In this document: positions 7,100-29,698 of the stretch, piece by piece
Position numbering within the stretch: the stretch's first letter is position 1
How the letters are laid out: each line of letters opens with the position of its first letter
Assembly: GCA_965242655.1 (NCBI GenBank)
Contig: OZ251482.1
Location: 4,137,480 to 4,201,479 of the forward strand
Source of the DNA: Caldilineaceae bacterium
GTDB lineage: Bacteria; Chloroflexota; Anaerolineae; Caldilineales; Caldilineaceae
Length of the DNA stretch: 64,000 nucleotides
Reading direction: 5' to 3'
Program-made: the position numbers and the translations under genes
Notes under the pieces: generated by a model
Seen by the model: only the letters and a program-made list of their open reading frames with translations
What the model was told of the DNA's origin: nothing
Database searches by the model: none

Positions 7100-7402
7100 T
7101 CAAGATGGCATTTTCATCTGGGGGGCAGCCCTTCTTTCTTTACGCGTCGTTCTTAACCGTCGCGCGGCTTCCAACCGTCCCTCAGCCGTCAGCCTGAGTC
7201 TCAGATCCGTTTGTCTTGGACTGGCCGTCAGCTCTATAGGGTATTGCCGCGCAAACGCTTTCAAAAGTCTTTGCGCCACGGCCTTCGCCTCTTCATGGCT
7301 GTCTACGAAGGGTAAGGCTTCGATCTCTTCCAAGGTAATCTGAGCATTGTGCAAAAGGAGCATGCCGGCCAAACGCACGGAAATGGCAAAAGTGTCAACC
7401 AT
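7100..7402 (-). CDS. Hypothetical 100-aa protein, translationally coupled to the upstream protease gene
   Basis: ORF track 7100..7462. ATG 7402 is preceded by AAGGAGGAG. Its start overlaps the protease stop by 8 nt (ATGGTTGA). The sequence MVDTFAISVRLAGMLLLHNAQITLEEIEALPF... ends in a basic C-terminal tail. I recognise no family. Confidence 0.6.
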   Translation of the reverse strand: MVDTFAISVRLAGMLLLHNAQITLEEIEALPFVDSHEEAKAVAQRLLKAFARQYPIELTASPRQTDLRLRLTAEGRLEAARRLRTTRKERRAAPQMKMPS

Positions 7403-8354
7403 CTTCTCCTCCTTTGGTATCAGGGGAAGCCTCTGGACGAACAATGTCAGGAGGCAACTCATCCAAAAGAGCGGGCGGCAATTTTTTGAGTTGCTCCGTC
7501 ATGTCTTGCTTGAGTTGCGCTTCCTGTAACTCGGCTTTCCGTCGCACCAACTTGTGAATTCGCCATACGAGGCGAAATGGGTCGGGGCAAAGATCATCCA
7601 CTACCAAGCCTAAGGATCTCGCTTCATCAATGTTGATGCAAAATCCATGGTCGGCGTAATCTTCGACTAACCGAGTCGCGATCTGTCGCGCGGACGCCTC
7701 CTTGTCCTTAAGCATACGCGAGGACAGCAGATTGTTCGCATACTGTTTTCCAATCTCCAAAGATTGCTTGACGCCGCCCAGCGTAATCGGAAACTGGAGC
7801 CTCTGCAATAGCCCTTCAGCCAAAGCGGTGTGTCCTTGATCGAACTCTTTCCTGATCAACTCCAGCGTGAATTCAATATGTAGGGGCGAAAAAGATTCGA
7901 GTCTCTGCTCCAGAGGATTCATCTGCGTTATCTGAGGGTCCAAGGGACCCGGTTCAGCTACGGGCGTCATCATTATCGAGTCGCCCCCGCATACCAAAAG
8001 CGTCGCAGCACTTTTCGCCCAGCGAGGCACAATATACGTTAAGCGCTTACGTCCGTACCTTTGAAGGAGCAAAGCCAGATTGTATGCGGCATCTATATCG
8101 CCGCCACCGGAATCAACCACTACGATGAGGCGCTGATCGTTATCAAGACCGATGCGATCGAGCAGAGCGTCAAATACGTTATCAACTGTCTTAGCCGTAA
8201 TTTGGTCCTCTGCAAACAAGAATGGATGGCAGGCCTCGCCGTCGTCTCCGCAAGCCTTGGCGAGTTTGCCAAGAAGATCCTCTATTTCCGTATCAATAGC
8301 GGCTATATCGTCCATAGCAGCGACATCATTTGAAGACATTTTGTACTCTGACAT
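7395..8354 (-). CDS. SDH-family (serine dehydrogenase proteinase-like) ClpP/crotonase-fold serine protease
   Basis: ORF track 7395..8564; start moved to ATG 8354 (MSEYKMSSND). The core LIVVVDSGGGDIDAAYNLALLL..TYIVPRWAKSAATLLVCGGDSIMMTPVAEPGPLDPQ matches the ClpP-fold SDH/SppA-like pattern, with a Ser nucleophile in AKSAAT. GC is visibly lower than in the flanks. Confidence 0.75.
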   Translation of the reverse strand: MSEYKMSSNDVAAMDDIAAIDTEIEDLLGKLAKACGDDGEACHPFLFAEDQITAKTVDNVFDALLDRIGLDNDQRLIVVVDSGGGDIDAAYNLALLLQRYGRKRLTYIVPRWAKSAATLLVCGGDSIMMTPVAEPGPLDPQITQMNPLEQRLESFSPLHIEFTLELIRKEFDQGHTALAEGLLQRLQFPITLGGVKQSLEIGKQYANNLLSSRMLKDKEASARQIATRLVEDYADHGFCINIDEARSLGLVVDDLCPDPFRLVWRIHKLVRRKAELQEAQLKQDMTEQLKKLPPALLDELPPDIVRPEASPDTKGGEDG

Positions 8355-8639
8355 CAGTATTTTGCGCCTTTCAGAGAAAAATCCCAAGACCACTGTAGCA
8401 AACCATGGGGTACATACCCAAACGGCAGAAGCACTGAGATTATGCCGCAGTATGATGGGCCTTCTTTGATCTTGCCCTGTGTCCAAGAAATTGGACTGGT
8501 AAGGCCGCCCGGTGGATGGACACCCGCAGATCCGCATCCTATCTTTTCTGAACGTCGGTTCCAAGCGGTCGGCCGCGTACGGGAAGGGGAACGCGGTCTA
8601 TCGCCGCCAGGCCCGCGGAGCGATCAGGGCATCGGGCCG

Positions 8640-11574: not shown

Positions 11575-11938
11575 CAAGATTTCGCCTCAAGAGGGGCGAC
11601 TCCGCTGCCTTTCTCATCATGAGGATCGCTTTGCATTGTCTACCATAACCAAAACCTCTATGGCTAATTTTAGCAGATTGCACAGCCCAGGTGATGTGGA
11701 CAATTCTGATTTCCGACCGTGTAAAGAGTCTGGACATGGGCGCGACATAGCCCCCGGTACCGCTACCGTTCATGCCTGCCAGGCACGGCAATAGGGGGCT
11801 GAATACGCTCGCACGGCAGGCAGCCGCAAGAACGGCCCCCAATCTGAATCCGACAGTATCCAATCTGCTCCGGTAGCCCAGAAACTGCGAATAGACCGCT
11901 GTCTCTGGAACTTAGCCGGGCGGAATGGCCTGGTGAAC

Positions 11939-11968
11939 TTGACTGCGCATATATGTTCAGACTAGACT
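11939..11968 (+). promoter_or_regulatory. Candidate sigma70-type promoter for the phd/vapC operon (TTGACT, 18 nt, TAGACT), overlapping a short inverted repeat GACTAG..CTAGTC
   Basis: Motif match 38 nt upstream of ATG 12006. Speculative. Confidence 0.3.
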
Positions 11969-12005
11969 TATGGCTAGTCAGCATCTGGCATCGTGAGGCG
12001 TTGCT

Positions 12006-12266
12006 ATGAACGGAACTTGGCAGGTCCAGGACGCGAAAGCGAAATTTAGCGAGTTGCTTGCCGCCAGCCTGGCGGACGGACCGCAGATCGTGACCAAACG
12101 CGGCGTGGAAACGGCCGTGCTCGTCTCCATGGAGACGTGGCAACATTTGCAGGCTTTGGCAAGACCAAGTTTGAAGGATTTGCTGCTGGCTCCCGAAGCG
12201 CGGACGGAGACGCTGACTCCGGCGCGGCGTCCTTATCGCTATCGCTCTTCCCCCGTATTGGAGTAA
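12006..12266 (+). CDS. Phd/YefM-family type II antitoxin
   Basis: MNGTWQVQDAKAKFSELLAASLADGPQIVTKRGVETAVLVSMETWQ is a typical Phd/YefM N-terminus. The gene lies directly upstream of a PIN toxin gene. Confidence 0.85.
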   Translation: MNGTWQVQDAKAKFSELLAASLADGPQIVTKRGVETAVLVSMETWQHLQALARPSLKDLLLAPEARTETLTPARRPYRYRSSPVLE

Positions 12267-12271
12267 GCCCC

Positions 12272-12679
12272 ATGTACCTTCTGGATACCGACGTGGTTTC
12301 GGAATTGCGACGTCCGCGCCCGCACAAGGCAGTGTTGCAGTGGTTGGCGCAGGTACCGGAAACCCAGATTTTCATCTCCGCCGTTACCGTTGGCGAAATA
12401 CAGGCGGGCATTGAAAGCGCACGCGAGCGGGATAAGGCCAAGGCAGAGGAGTTGGGCGCTTGGCTGGACCAGCTCCTCGCGTCTTACAATCCGGTACCGA
12501 TGGATGCAGCCGCTTTTCGCGCATGGGGACGCCTCATGCATAGAAAACCGAAGGGCCTCTATCAAGATGCCATGATCGCCGCTACAGCCCTTGTACGCGG
12601 CTTGGTGGTCGTTACGCGGAACGCGCGCGATTTCGACCAGTTAGGCGTAGAAATACGGGATCCATGCCAAGACGCTTGA
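12272..12679 (+). CDS. vapC: PIN-domain type II toxin (VapC/FitB-like ribonuclease)
   Basis: MYLLDTDVVSEL.. (Asp), TVGEIQ (Glu), DAMIAATAL (Asp), VVTRNARDF. The ATG at 12272 lies within ORF-track 12137..12679. Confidence 0.85.
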   Translation: MYLLDTDVVSELRRPRPHKAVLQWLAQVPETQIFISAVTVGEIQAGIESARERDKAKAEELGAWLDQLLASYNPVPMDAAAFRAWGRLMHRKPKGLYQDAMIAATALVRGLVVVTRNARDFDQLGVEIRDPCQDA

Positions 12680-26042: not shown

Positions 26043-26351
26043 GTCGGGTCGCTCCTGCGTCGTTCCGGGAACAGCGGTTCGCCTCCCTAGATTCTGCGTC
26101 ATAGTCGCGCATTTGGCAATCTTGAGAGGGGCGGCAAGAGCGTTGTGCCCGGAAGCCGCGGGAGGCATTTCATGGCCCGCTCTGCGCTTGACGCGTATCA
26201 GGGCCAGGGATCTGCGATAGGACGCGGCTCTCTCTCAGCATTGTTGGCGATGAGGGCCTATTGCATCTGCGCCTAAACTGGCGCGACGCCTCGCTTCGTC
26301 ATCGCCAGCGCCGGCGCTTCCCTGCCCATTCTTGCGCGGGATGTTCAGGAC

Positions 26352-26822
26352 CTACAGAGCCTCGAGAGCCAGACTGCCGAGTTTGCGACGCAAATCGTCA
26401 AGCAAGGCCTTCAAGGAATGATTGGATTTTCCCGCGCGATAGAAATCCGTGGCGCTCACCAAGTCCGCGGCGAATTCAATGCCGCCCAAGGTAGCGGAAC
26501 GACCTCCCGCGCGGACGGCGTCGGCCAATATCTGCTTGTAATTCAGCCGTGACGGTCTGGCCGTTTCCAGTTGCGGTCGCGCTCCGATAACTTTTTCGAA
26601 AGACGTTGGATCCGCCATATACCAACGCTCTATATAGGGGTCGGGACAGGCAAGAACCAGTCTGTCGGCGAGATTGGGACTTGTGGCTGCTCGAATCTGC
26701 GCGCGTTTCTTGGCGAAGGACTCGCCGTTGCAATCGACCGCGACAATCACGAGATCGGAATCCGCGGCGCTCGGTATCATTTGGTCGAATACATTCTGGT
26801 ACAGGCGAAATTCCTGCATCAC
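26352..26822 (-). CDS. Toprim-like DUF4276-type protein, C-terminal 155 aa (downstream reading frame of a split gene)
   Basis: ORF track. DLVIVAVDCNGESF (DxD-like) and PDPYIERWYMADP (ElEaW-like) fit my recollection of DUF4276. See the N-terminal fragment 26819..26968. Confidence 0.6.
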   Translation of the reverse strand: MMQEFRLYQNVFDQMIPSAADSDLVIVAVDCNGESFAKKRAQIRAATSPNLADRLVLACPDPYIERWYMADPTSFEKVIGARPQLETARPSRLNYKQILADAVRAGGRSATLGGIEFAADLVSATDFYRAGKSNHSLKALLDDLRRKLGSLALEAL

Positions 26823-26968
26823 GCGCGCGCGTGTCCGCCGCGCGCGGAACGCACATGCGTCGTAACGGCCAGATGCGCTTCGCAGGCGATGCGGGAAACC
26901 AGCGGTCGCATGAAGACTTCTTGCGCGCGATCCTCAACGAACAGTTCCGCAGTCACGGGTTCAGGCAT
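26819..26968 (-). CDS. N-terminal 49-codon fragment of the DUF4276-type gene, in a different frame from the rest
   Basis: Own translation: MPEPVTAELFVEDRAQEVFMRPLVSRIACEAHLAVTTHVRSARGGHARA*. The ATG overlaps the ATPase stop (ATGCCTGA). The TGA shares its A with ATG 26819 of the downstream frame. A (CG)5 run lies at the junction. Confidence 0.5.
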   Translation of the reverse strand: MPEPVTAELFVEDRAQEVFMRPLVSRIACEAHLAVTTHVRSARGGHARA

Positions 26969-28208
26969 CAATCAGGCCTCGCAACAAGAGACCGCTGAAT
27001 ATGCGGGTATCGTCCGCCGCGAGGGCCGCGCGGATTTTATCGTCGCGAAACAGCGGCCCTTGCAGGTCCAGCGGCTCTACCTCCGTCGCCTGATTGCGGT
27101 AGCGAACCAGATACATCCCGATATCGCGACCGTACGGCGTCGCAAGGTTCAGAATCGTATCGCAGAAAAGCGGCGAGTGAGTCGTTACGATGACTTGGCA
27201 GCGCTTCTGCATGGCAACGGAGAGCAGAAGCTCCGCGATCAGCTCCAGGCGACGGGGATGCACGCCGTTTTCCGGTTCTTCGAAAGCAAGCAGCGAACCG
27301 CTCCATGGGTTCTCGGCAATGGCGCATAACGCAAGCACGCGTAGGGTGCCTTCGGATAGGACTCGAGAGGAATAATCCACTCCGCCTTGCCGGATGCGCA
27401 AATCCAAAGTCCCGCGCTGCGCATTGAGATCGACCGCTATTTTTTCGACATTCGGCACGATGGTGCGTAGCGTACGTCCCAAATCCTCAAATTTTTGCGG
27501 ATGCTCGGCCTTGAGTTTGAAGAGAAAGGGGGCGATCGATTCCCCGGCTACGCCAATATTCCAGATGTCGGCAGGCGCGGCCTCCGCGCGCATCGAAAGT
27601 CTGGGATCCAAATAGTACGTATGCCAGTTGGAGAATTCGGTGCGCACTTTTTCCAACCAAGCAAAGCCGGCGTCGCTGCTCAAACTCCGGTCGGACAGAA
27701 GGGCATGATTCAGGCCGACGGGCTCATTGCGCGGACGACCTCTTCCGCCCCTGCCTTTACGCCTGACGTGCAGCTGGGAGTCCTGCTTTTCAATGGCAGG
27801 CAATCCTTTGGGTTGGCCTTTGGCTCCTATCTGGGCCAGATATTCGTCGGCTACGCGGAGCCGTCCGGATTGCATGTCGATGCTGGGCGCGATGCGATAT
27901 CGGTATCGTTCTTGGCCAGCCGTCAAATCGGCCTCAAGGCAGAACTGGATAGACTCTTGTCGAATCAAGGCCGGGATGCCGCCGGCAGGCATAGCGAAGG
28001 CTTCAAAACTGTATCCGCGTACGGGCCGCTGACGTCCAAGAGCCTCATCCAGAGTGGAAGCATTGCCTATCCAGGACAAAGCCTGCACAGCTTCTGCCAA
28101 CGTGCTTTTGCCGGCGGCATTGGGACCGAACAAAACGGTCAATTGAGGCAGTTCAACCGTGACCTCATGCAAAGACTTGAAGTTGCGGACGGTCAATTTA
28201 TTGAGCAT
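26961..28208 (-). CDS. ABC-type (AAA_15/AAA_21, OLD/AriA/RecF-like) ATPase
   Basis: MLNKLTVRNFKSLHEVTVEL..LFGPNAAGKST (Walker A), LSEGTLRVLAL (signature-like), LLAFEEPENGVHP (Walker B/D-loop), VTTHSP (H-loop). Confidence 0.85.
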   Translation of the reverse strand: MLNKLTVRNFKSLHEVTVELPQLTVLFGPNAAGKSTLAEAVQALSWIGNASTLDEALGRQRPVRGYSFEAFAMPAGGIPALIRQESIQFCLEADLTAGQERYRYRIAPSIDMQSGRLRVADEYLAQIGAKGQPKGLPAIEKQDSQLHVRRKGRGGRGRPRNEPVGLNHALLSDRSLSSDAGFAWLEKVRTEFSNWHTYYLDPRLSMRAEAAPADIWNIGVAGESIAPFLFKLKAEHPQKFEDLGRTLRTIVPNVEKIAVDLNAQRGTLDLRIRQGGVDYSSRVLSEGTLRVLALCAIAENPWSGSLLAFEEPENGVHPRRLELIAELLLSVAMQKRCQVIVTTHSPLFCDTILNLATPYGRDIGMYLVRYRNQATEVEPLDLQGPLFRDDKIRAALAADDTRIFSGLLLRGLIDA

Positions 28209-28501
28209 GGTCTCGATACGCTCATGAACAGGCGAACGAAATAGGCTAGAGACAAGTCAAGGCCAAAGGCGGAATCATCTCAGTCGCCCAGGATAAGAAT
28301 ACAATAGACGGTTTTTCCGAGGCGACGACAAGGATCATTTTTTCTTGCTGCTCTTTGGACTTCCTGCGCCATCCGGCAAAAGGCAACCTTATGGGCTCCA
28401 GAGTCAGGAAAAGGTCGCTTTATTGGAAGGAAGCTTGCAGGCAGGCTGACGGCCGGCGCGTCGTTTCAGGGCTAAAGCCTTTGGCCCCTTGATTCTCAAT
28501 A

Positions 28502-28531
28502 GAAAAAATCCCCCGTCATTGACGGGGGATT
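28502..28531 (-). terminator. Rho-independent terminator downstream of the MBL gene
   Basis: The minus strand reads AATCCCCCGTC-AAT-GACGGGGGATT followed by TTTTTCT: a perfect 11-bp stem, 3-nt loop and U-tract. Confidence 0.8.
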
Positions 28532-28618
28532 CCAGAGTCATGGCCGTTAGGCAAAGGGATGACGGCACGCCGCCGGGTTAGCTCCCCATGGCTGGACCGC
28601 GCGCTCTGCGCTTCAATA

Positions 28619-29698
28619 TCAGTCGCTGTGGTAAATCGAAATGAGCATTCTCTGCACATGCCGCGGGAACGAATTGTCGTAATTCGTCCAGTCCTGGTAT
28701 TTTTCCAGGTTCAGCGTCTCCGGCAGCGAATCATAGAGGCCGTACGCAGCAAAGGGACCGCCTTGGGCCACGGCCTGCTGAATGGCCTCTTGCACGGCAA
28801 CGTACAAATCGTTGTAATATTCGACGTTTTCGTACAAATCCTGCGGGTTGGTGCCGGGAGAATGGGCGTTGATGGCATGCGTGAGCGGCCACTGGCTAAT
28901 GGTGTTGAGAATATGCCGCGTACCGACGAAATGCTTGTCTTCGACCCAGTTCCGGTGGGTGAGGGCCCGCGGCTCGTACATATCCGCCGTAACGACAATC
29001 TGTTCTTCCGGCATATAGATCACCGTGGTGGCCTCGCCGTCGCCGGGGCCGAGGTGATGCAACTCAACGGTCTTGCCGCCCACGTCAAGAGCCAGATAGT
29101 CCTCGAAGGTATGGGCCACTTTAGGCACGTCGCCCACCGCATAGTCGAAGAGGTCAAAGGCCGGCAGGCAGTTTACGTGGCAGAAGACTTCCGCATCTTC
29201 GAAAATGAGAGAACCGCCTACATGGTCGTAATGCTCGTGCGTCATGACGATCCGGGTAACGGGCACGTCCGTGATTTGGGCGATTTCGTCCTTGAGGGAC
29301 TGGGCGCGCATCTCGTTGTTCGTATCCGTAATCAGAACGCCGTCGTCCGCGATGACCACCAAGCTGCTGCTGAAAAATCCGAAGTAATGATAGACGCTGT
29401 CCGCCAACTGCGTCATCGTGGGCGGCGGCATTTGCGGCATTGGGGCCGCCTGTTCCGTATCGCCGTCTTCCGCGGCCATAGCGTCGTCCGCATCGGCGTC
29501 CATATCGGCGTCATCGTCGTGGCCGGCGGCGTCCGCATCGGCATCCATGCCGGCATCGGCATCGCTATCCGTCGCCATTTCCTGCATATTCGAGGCAGGC
29601 ATAGCGGGCGGCGCGACCATGGGTTGTCCGACGCACGCGACCAGCGCCAGCAGGGCAACGGCGCAGGCCGTCAACGTCAAGCTCAGTTTCGCTTTCAT
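28619..29698 (-). CDS. MBL-fold metallo-hydrolase lipoprotein with acidic D/A-rich linker
   Basis: Lipobox LALVAC, linker DSDADAGMDADADAAGHDDDADMDADADD, metal motif MTHEHYDHVGG. Confidence 0.85.
   Translation of the reverse strand: MKAKLSLTLTACAVALLALVACVGQPMVAPPAMPASNMQEMATDSDADAGMDADADAAGHDDDADMDADADDAMAAEDGDTEQAAPMPQMPPPTMTQLADSVYHYFGFFSSSLVVIADDGVLITDTNNEMRAQSLKDEIAQITDVPVTRIVMTHEHYDHVGGSLIFEDAEVFCHVNCLPAFDLFDYAVGDVPKVAHTFEDYLALDVGGKTVELHHLGPGDGEATTVIYMPEEQIVVTADMYEPRALTHRNWVEDKHFVGTRHILNTISQWPLTHAINAHSPGTNPQDLYENVEYYNDLYVAVQEAIQQAVAQGGPFAAYGLYDSLPETLNLEKYQDWTNYDNSFPRHVQRMLISIYHSD

Follow-up and report, generated by a model that had tools for sequence, protein, structure and literature searches.

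The question raised by this locus is what two adjacent genes on the reverse strand (26352..28208) represent within a sugar-catabolism cluster of a Caldilineaceae bacterium, and whether they still work there. The genes lie in a 64,000-nucleotide stretch of contig OZ251482.1 (positions 4,137,480 to 4,201,479; hereafter the window) and encode, respectively, an ATPase of the ATP-binding cassette (ABC) type and a small protein of the DUF4276 family, the second gene being broken into two reading frames. A sequence-only reading of this stretch had taken them for a sensor-effector conflict module. The analyses reported here indicate, with a probability of about 65%, that the two genes form a candidate anti-phage module of the HEC-01 type whose effector gene is frameshifted and which is probably inactive in this genome. 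The identities of the two genes, their adjacency, the frameshift, the association of the family with defence islands and Hma systems, and purifying selection are directly supported by the data below; a nuclease activity, a sensor-effector logic and a target are proposed by analogy with characterised systems. The feature is real and the earlier reading had identified it rightly, but by the standards of the field it is nothing unusual.

The upstream gene is intact, and the Walker A, signature, Walker B and H-loop motifs of its 415-amino acid product were found at the places where they had been read from the sequence (Table 1), including the long insert, which spans about 250 amino acids between Walker A and the signature. 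Pfam AAA_21 aligned to amino acids 23-350 of the protein over the full length of the profile (positions 1-304 of 304; E = 1.6e-29) and AAA_15 matched as well (E = 2.7e-21), in agreement with the OLD/PARIS-like architecture proposed earlier. Comparison with the PADLOC profiles revealed the HEC-01A model PDLC04184 as the top match (E = 1.8e-45), while a second HEC-01A model, PDLC04182, covered amino acids 2-352 (E = 1.7e-40). HEC-01A models made up 10 of the top 25 PADLOC matches, and those to PDC-M07A, AriA, mad3, AbiLi, NsnB, Old and GajA were weaker and ranked below them. The possibility that the ATPase belongs to a transporter or repair family was also examined: RecF, RecN, SMC and ABC-transporter profiles matched short stretches, mainly the P-loop region, far under their curated cut-offs, with ABC_tran covering amino acids 16-44 only (17.6 bits against a cut-off of 25), and no permease gene adjoins the ATPase gene among the open reading frames (ORFs) of the window or in the syntenic locus L001 of a relative. 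Its profile matches place the protein among the AAA_21/AAA_15 ABC ATPases of the OLD/PARIS-related radiation.

The stop codon of the ATPase gene (TGA, 26963..26961) overlaps the start codon of the downstream gene (ATG, 26968..26966), and the overlap, already noted from the sequence, amounts to 8 nt (ATGCCTGA). The two pieces of that downstream gene, expected to give about 200 amino acids together, yield a product of 204-205 amino acids when the frame is repaired. Pfam DUF4276 (PF14103) aligned to the repaired product almost throughout the profile (positions 1-191 of 192; E = 6e-6, 26.8-27.1 bits), in line with the family assignment made earlier; 71 of 72 orthologs matched the same profile (best E = 3e-12), and most homologs of the small protein carry a precomputed PF14103 annotation. 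Matches of the repaired product to HEC-01B were weak (E = 2e-4, 19 bits), and one HEC-01B model was matched by 55 of the 72 orthologs. The other families named as checks in the sequence-only reading gave nothing: no DUF4435/AriB match was found for the small protein or its 72 orthologs in Pfam or the PADLOC profiles, and no Pfam RloB match in the 72 orthologs. Likewise, the OLD-type Toprim family PF20469 was not matched by the window pair in a search where the positive control, P2 Old, gave E = 1.2e-17.

Alignment of the DNA with intact orthologs revealed that the reading frame is interrupted by a +2 (CG) insertion after codon 49, and the position of the indel was confirmed. The start codon of the C-terminal fragment (26817..26819) overlaps the upstream stop codon (26819..26821) as TGATG. 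The same (CG)5 run is present in L003, an independent metagenome scaffold with 99.4% identity to the window over 1245 nt (about 7 differences), thus indicating that the frameshift is real and inherited and not an assembly artefact; moreover, the 155-amino acid product is on record in three assemblies. Phase variation at the (CG)n run was considered and rejected, as four to five units are short and the run just encodes His-Ala-Arg-Val in a GC-rich genome. Since the ORF of the effector is frameshifted, the module is most likely non-functional here and leaves an intact orphan ATPase.

A total of 80 loci were fetched via the small protein from one-genome-per-species contigs, and these were distributed among Acidobacteriota, Planctomycetota, Chloroflexota, Gemmatimonadota, Desulfobacterota, Verrucomicrobiota and other phyla. 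In 79 of the 80 loci, the ATPase gene immediately precedes that of the small protein in the same orientation, mostly with overlapping or abutting ORFs, and the sole exception is located at a contig end; the adjacency of the two genes in other genomes, which had been put forward as a check on the pair, is therefore borne out. Relatives of both proteins are very numerous, and an exhaustive profile search with the small protein recovered 902 representative clusters (50% identity) at E <= 0.001 and 282 at E <= 1e-30. Apparent frameshifts were also observed in distant members, affecting the ATPase gene in L006 and L039 and the DUF4276 gene near residue 41 in L048, and L039 additionally has its ATPase remnant some 1.4 kb away from the DUF4276 gene. 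Either genuine decay or errors in long-read assembly may account for these cases.

Genomic neighbourhoods were analysed by clustering the flanking ORFs of the 80 loci and annotating representatives. The gene for HmaC, a DUF499 ATPase, was located just downstream of the pair in 24 loci, and in 19 of the 62 loci (~31%) with at least 3 kb downstream, while the HmaB adenine methylase gene was found just upstream in all six loci checked, so that in these six the pair occupies the position between HmaB and HmaC that defined HEC-01. Other neighbours were a Ppl-like ATPase (13 loci), Schlafen/AlbA_2 (6 loci), type I restriction-modification (RM) methylase and restriction subunits (5 and 4 loci, respectively) and SoFic (3 loci), and the enrichment next to defence genes that had been suggested as a further check was thus recovered as a strong association with Hma, Ppl-like, type I RM and SoFic genes. 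In L035 (8773-12451), a pair of the window type is followed directly by a canonical HEC-01 pair (A, E = 5.6e-101; B, E = 2.5e-52), both inside one Hma system between HmaB and HmaC. This tandem, together with the HEC-01 scores, points to the window type as a divergent sister lineage of canonical HEC-01.

HEC-01, the Hma-embedded candidate 01 of PADLOC-DB v2, was described as an ABC ATPase with a TOPRIM-like protein that has a conserved metal site (Payne et al. 2024, 10.1101/2024.01.29.577857). The window pair shares with it the order of a co-oriented, AAA_21-type ABC ATPase followed by a DUF4276/TOPRIM-like protein of about 200 amino acids, the HEC-01A match and the upstream, adjacent position of the A gene, and its orthologs share the location between HmaB and HmaC; embedding in Hma is thus seen for the family and not for the window copy. 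The lineages differ in the score of the B protein (E = 2e-4 in the window and 5e-8 in its best ortholog, versus the far stronger canonical neighbour in L035) and in the central motif (D-x-N instead of the canonical D-E-D). In addition, the window copy lies outside Hma or any defence island, among metabolic neighbours, and its B gene is frameshifted. By sequence, the locus is accordingly placed as a divergent D-x-N sister lineage of the already catalogued HEC-01, stand-alone and pseudogenised here.

Three other systems resemble the pair and were rejected as its identity. PARIS also combines an AAA_15/21 ABC ATPase with a separate small putative nuclease of Toprim type, and AriA models match the window ATPase (E = 7.6e-27); however, this match is partial and weaker than that of HEC-01A, the small protein has no match to DUF4435/AriB, and PARIS is often borne by phages or satellites, whereas the IMG/VR viral contigs yielded no relatives. 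P2 Old and Gabija GajA unite an ABC ATPase with a metal-dependent nuclease module, as is predicted for the window pair, and P2 Old shows a local likeness of motifs (LLVEGKTE and IVAVDGKG, compared with LFVEDRAQE and IVAVDCNG in the window), but there the ATPase and Toprim domains are fused (PF20469), whereas the window has two genes and no UvrD/GajB-like helicase nearby. MADS contains the AAA ATPase Mad3 and the DUF4276 protein Mad4, and the top NCBIfam match of the window ATPase is indeed MAD3 (E = 8.4e-37), albeit with 127 bits against an equivalog cut-off of 420 bits; the small protein's PADLOC matches include no mad4 model, and the eight-gene context with a methylase and the mandatory Mad6-8 is absent, the genes within 10 kb being metabolic (syntenic locus L001). 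A further likeness is to RloA/RloB and AbiL (AbiLi/AbiLii), which pair an AAA_21-type ATPase with a small RloB-like protein and are often linked to RM genes; AbiLi matches the window ATPase (E = 4.9e-22), while the small protein differs in having no Pfam RloB match among its orthologs and only a marginal structural match, given below.

The literature on these systems also corrects the earlier statement that ATPase-DUF4276 pairs have no experimentally defined function. HEC-01 is catalogued and has been tested twice, and in one of the two studies a representative gave E. coli B protection from one or more of the phages T4, T5 and T7 (PMC12881386). DUF4276 is the Mad4 protein of MADS, assigned to the Toprim superfamily, and Menshen NsnC proteins can bear DUF4276 effector domains (PMC12065111), while the AAA_15/21 tree of the PARIS paper already marks DUF4276 partners (PMC11464382). 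Deletion of either Mad3 or Mad4 lowers MADS defence in Pseudomonas aeruginosa.

The small protein was modelled with AlphaFold2 from 72 sequences (pLDDT, the predicted local distance difference test, 92.4; predicted template modelling score, pTM, 0.89). Residues are numbered here from Met1 of MPEP; the model carries one extra N-terminal Met, and its numbers are higher by one. The modelled elements follow each other as strand 1, helix, strand 2, helix, strand 3, helix, strand 4 and a helical C-terminal part, with E12/D13 after strand 1, D78-x-N80 after strand 3 and E113 after strand 4; in the predicted structure, this order of elements and placement of motifs fit a Toprim domain, which has a four-stranded alpha/beta core with a conserved Glu after strand 1 and an acidic DxD after strand 3. 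Among 124 diverse representatives (26-45% identical to the window protein), D78, E113 and W115 are invariant, and E12, D13, N80, D119 and K144 are conserved in at least 90%; the repaired window protein keeps all of these residues. The Glu...DxD pattern on which the sequence-only reading had relied was not sustained in its second half, the central motif being DxN with D78 invariant and N80 nearly so. Alignment with hhalign paired VED, DCN and IERWY of the window lineage with VEG, DED and YEAWF, respectively, of a canonical HEC-01B.

Metagenome scaffolds of close relatives revealed how long the pair has resided at this site. They share with the window the gene order of a thiamine pyrophosphate (TPP) enzyme, 2-oxoacid dehydrogenase E1 and E2, an AP_endonuc_2 protein, a short-chain dehydrogenase/reductase (SDR), a Gfo/Idh/MocA oxidoreductase and a metallo-beta-lactamase (MBL)-fold protein, followed by the ATPase-DUF4276 pair, two Gfo/Idh/MocA oxidoreductases, an LTD/SH3 protein, an aldo-keto reductase and an FGGY kinase. 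This common order indicates that the pair is ancestral at the site within the clade. The same-site copies differ by about 0.25-0.3 synonymous substitutions per site (dS), and no relative with an empty site was found, each same-site locus examined having at least the ATPase. On these comparisons, the pair was inherited vertically between the MBL-fold and Gfo/Idh/MocA genes; the islet in a sugar-catabolism cluster described earlier therefore keeps its metabolic flanks but not the recent insertion that the description implied.

The DUF4276 gene is intact in nine of the twelve same-site loci, the window included (203-204 amino acids), frameshifted in two (the window and L003) and deleted in one, L086 (10946-11073), where the deletion covers about 790 nt, beginning near codon 9 of DUF4276 and ending some 100 nt short of the next gene, and the 415-amino acid ATPase remains intact. 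All loci that contain the complete ATPase gene have an undisrupted ORF for it, the gene being only partly included in L003 and L088. Fragments of 210 amino acids were considered as ATPase pseudogenes and rejected, since in-frame alignment showed intact ORFs and thus artefacts of gene calling. In L087, L089 and L090, the public calls split the intact 415-amino acid ATPase into a C-terminal call of 210 amino acids and a spurious opposite-strand ORF of about 195 amino acids, and the numbers of truncated ATPases in the protein collection are therefore inflated.

The ratio of nonsynonymous to synonymous substitution rates (dN/dS; Nei-Gojobori method) of the ATPase was 0.13-0.17 in most pairs and 0.22-0.28 in pairs with L086, whose effector is deleted. 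For the DUF4276 gene it was 0.32 between two intact copies and 0.39-0.53 against the window copy, while the flanking genes ranged from 0.05 to 0.34. These values indicate that the pair has been kept by selection in the clade and that the window effector was lost recently. A bolder proposition, which we consider doubtful, is that the D-x-N sub-lineage is a long-term chromosomal resident outside defence islands, whose ATPase is under purifying selection and whose nuclease is lost repeatedly; if so, either the ATPase functions without the nuclease, or the clade is a natural experiment in purging a toxic effector.

How an intact module of this type would act can be sketched by analogy. A homo-oligomeric ABC ATPase, translationally coupled to the small DUF4276/RloB-like protein, would keep the nuclease inactive and sense infection, as in PARIS and P2 Old. 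The trigger may be a phage protein or an aberrant nucleic acid, detected in an ATP-dependent manner, and on its detection the nuclease would be freed or activated; the DUF4276 protein, as a putative metal-dependent nuclease, would then cut an essential nucleic acid (tRNA or DNA), and the infection would be aborted. In PARIS, the AriA hexamer sequesters AriB, which is freed by ATP-dependent detection of a phage protein and cleaves tRNA-Lys, while in P2 Old, an ABC-Toprim tRNase, destabilisation of the tetramer brings about activation. The notion of an analogous conflict module using another Toprim-like family thus stands as to the DUF4276 pairing and the association with defence; it was not supported by our own tests of the Toprim fold, and the effector is broken here.

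Several results weigh against this reading. In the central motif (VAVDCNG), the second Asp of the canonical DxD is replaced by Asn. The structural comparison with Toprim folds that had been suggested as a check was carried out with Foldseek against the PDB for the full model and for a model of the N-terminal 130 amino acids (pLDDT 83.6), and in neither run was there a match at E <= 0.001 or a Toprim chain among the top 50; the PDB matches were generic alpha/beta, and the best structural match of the DUF4276 model was a predicted RloB-like viral protein (E = 4.8e-3, probability 1.00, template modelling scores 0.55/0.53). Comparison with the Toprim domain of P2 Old by hhalign gave a probability of at most 5% and aligned only the IVAVDG motif, a weak test because the Old profile was built from only five fragments, and profile searches of PDB sequences with the small protein returned nothing. 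No significant similarity to a solved Toprim domain was therefore found with Foldseek, hhalign or PDB profiles, and the Toprim membership of DUF4276 is supported here by the literature, in which HEC-01B, DUF4276 and RloB were placed in the Toprim superfamily by structure comparison (10.1101/2024.01.29.577857; PMC12065111), and was not recovered independently by these fold tests. In addition, the repaired product scores about 3 bits under the DUF4276 gathering cut-off (30.2 bits) and matches HEC-01B only weakly. A recognised defence gene within 10 kb is lacking in roughly two thirds of the loci and throughout the window clade, and a search of IMG/VR viral contigs yielded no relatives. When HEC-01 was first tested in a published study, no protection was observed (10.1101/2024.01.29.577857), and both phage studies used other lineages, the nuclease activity and defence role of this sub-lineage being putative. 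Finally, the TGATG overlap could let both fragments be translated, which makes a complete loss of function less certain.

That overlap is the starting point of an alternative in which the module still works, the 49- and 155-amino acid fragments reassembling as a split enzyme or the C-terminal fragment or the ATPase being functional alone. The in-frame position of the second start codon would allow it, the frameshift allele is common to at least two strains, and the constraint on the ATPase is not relaxed in comparisons with the window copy (dN/dS 0.13-0.17). Nevertheless, the break separates strand 2 from helix 2 within the predicted alpha/beta core, the small gene shows its higher dN/dS in comparisons with the window copy, the sister lineage L086 deleted the DUF4276 gene outright, and a split Toprim or DUF4276 enzyme has no known precedent, so that a working module is judged clearly improbable. 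A housekeeping role, be it as a RecF/RecN/SMC-like repair ATPase with a small nuclease, as a cofactor of the sugar-catabolism operon or as a transporter subunit, is more improbable still. It would account for the syntenic, vertically inherited place in a metabolic cluster under purifying selection and for the weak N-terminal matches of the ATPase to RecF, RecN and SMC_N. These matches are short, mostly confined to the P-loop and far under the cut-offs, however, and there is no membrane partner; the pair forms its own terminator-bounded unit with GC (guanine plus cytosine) content and GC3 (GC at third codon positions) under those of the operon, the same pair recurs in unrelated contexts across many phyla, often in defence islands, and the effector is dispensable within the clade, as shown by the frameshift and the deletion.

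Instead of forming a self-contained defence system, the pair could also serve methylation-based systems (Hma, type I RM or MADS-like) in an accessory or regulatory capacity, for example as a nuclease arm acting on unmodified DNA, with the window clade as a decaying remnant without its partner. The frequency of HmaC neighbours and the placement of the six checked pairs between HmaB and HmaC would fit such a role, as would the members located in type I RM loci, the requirement of the homologs Mad3 and Mad4 for MADS defence, and the loss of the effector by frameshift and deletion in the window clade. On the other hand, in about two thirds of the loci neither an Hma nor an RM gene occurs within 10 kb, and the partnerless window clade keeps a low dN/dS for both the ATPase and the intact DUF4276 gene, which indicates that function is maintained without Hma; moreover, HEC-01 alone gave some protection in one study (PMC12881386). 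An accessory role is therefore considered rather unlikely, and the HEC-01-type module with a broken effector is preferred.

Pairs of an ABC ATPase and a nuclease are a major and still poorly understood theme of bacterial immunity. To our knowledge, no biochemistry has yet been reported for HEC-01 or DUF4276, and its two phage assays conflict. The locus itself adds little, being of a catalogued kind and having a disrupted effector gene. More useful is the comparison with its relatives, which defines a widespread and very tightly coupled sub-lineage across many phyla, which current HEC-01B profiles barely detect, and conservation shortlists E12/D13, D78-x-N80, E113, D119 and K144 as candidate catalytic residues. 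Most interesting is the allelic series at one site, with intact, frameshifted and deleted effectors next to a conserved ATPase, which could be used as natural controls.

Table 1. Positions of the ATPase-DUF4276 pair, its motifs and its immediate flanks in the window.
Feature	Positions	Strand	Basis
ABC-type (AAA_21/AAA_15) ATPase gene, intact, 415 amino acids, HEC-01A-like	26961..28208	(-)	ORF and profile matches
Walker A GPNAAGKST, amino acids 28-36	28101..28127	(-)	Motif position in ATPase
ABC signature-like LSEGTLR, amino acids 284-290	27339..27359	(-)	Motif position in ATPase
Walker B / D-loop region LLAFEEPENGVHP, amino acids 306-318	27255..27293	(-)	Motif position in ATPase
H-loop TTHSP, amino acids 342-346	27171..27185	(-)	Motif position in ATPase
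DUF4276 (HEC-01B-like) gene, frameshifted pseudogene; repaired product 204-205 amino acids	26352..26968	(-)	ORFs, alignment, profiles
N-terminal fragment, 49 amino acids and stop (TGA); strand 1, conserved Glu-Asp (FVEDRA), helix 1, strand 2	26819..26968	(-)	
C-terminal fragment, other frame, 155-156 amino acids; D-x-N, E-R-W motif, helical C-terminal part	26352..26822	(-)	
(CG)5 run with +2 insertion; (CG)4 in intact orthologs	26822..26831	(-)	DNA alignment with L001, L002
MBL-fold gene, upstream flank	28619..29698	(-)	Pfam Lactamase_B, E 4.9e-11; GC 58.8%, GC3 0.75
Gfo/Idh/MocA oxidoreductase gene, downstream flank, 331 amino acids	25047..26042	(-)	Pfam GFO_IDH_MocA domains; synteny with L001
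AT-richer spacer upstream of ATPase, 410 nt, GC 54.1%	28209..28618	(-)	Composition
Intrinsic-terminator-like hairpin, 13-bp stem and T run, ends MBL gene	28505..28533	(-)	

The flanks of the pair were those described from the sequence, Pfam confirming both the MBL and the Gfo/Idh/MocA genes, and the AT-richer upstream spacer of about 400 nt was likewise recovered (Table 1). The GC content of the ATPase and DUF4276 genes is 57.3 and 58.2%, respectively, compared with a window mean of 64.4% and with 64-66% in the two flanking Gfo genes, and the GC3 of the ATPase gene is 0.64, versus 0.81-0.85 in the flanking Gfo/Idh/MocA and SDR genes. The lower local GC noted earlier is thus real, but its limits are not, since the MBL gene is also low in GC and the low-GC stretch therefore extends beyond 26352-28208. 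The strong terminator-like hairpin closes the MBL gene, which makes the pair a separate transcription unit, and the spacer presumably holds its own promoter; scanning the spacer for promoters gave no sigma-70-like site, and Rfam searches of the window and of the spacer returned no family above threshold. The MBL gene itself has an acidic, Asp/Ala-rich, repetitive N-terminal region (repeats at 29454-29543), and its product varies between 354 and 378 amino acids among close relatives.

A 15-nt imperfect direct repeat, AAGCGCAGAGCG[C/G]GC in gene orientation, occurs at 28599-28613 and 26175-26189, 2424 nt apart, and brackets the islet exactly, one copy following closely on the stop codon of the MBL gene and the other located in the gap between the DUF4276 and Gfo/Idh/MocA genes. 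It was considered as an insertion footprint and rejected, as both copies are present in L087 but only one in L001, L084, L089 and L091, and the match is near the chance expectation.

Elsewhere in the window, an ORF with a PIN domain (12137-12676, (+); Pfam PIN, E = 8.7e-18; lowered GC3, ~0.6) adjoins a small unannotated ORF (11766-12146, (-)), and the two may form a toxin-antitoxin-like islet. The ORF at 7398-8564 (-) contains a ClpP-like SDH-type serine protease domain (E = 2e-11) and has the lowest GC3 (0.54) among the ORFs called in the window; it is followed by an ORF of 120 amino acids without a Pfam match, and together they look like another islet of foreign appearance.

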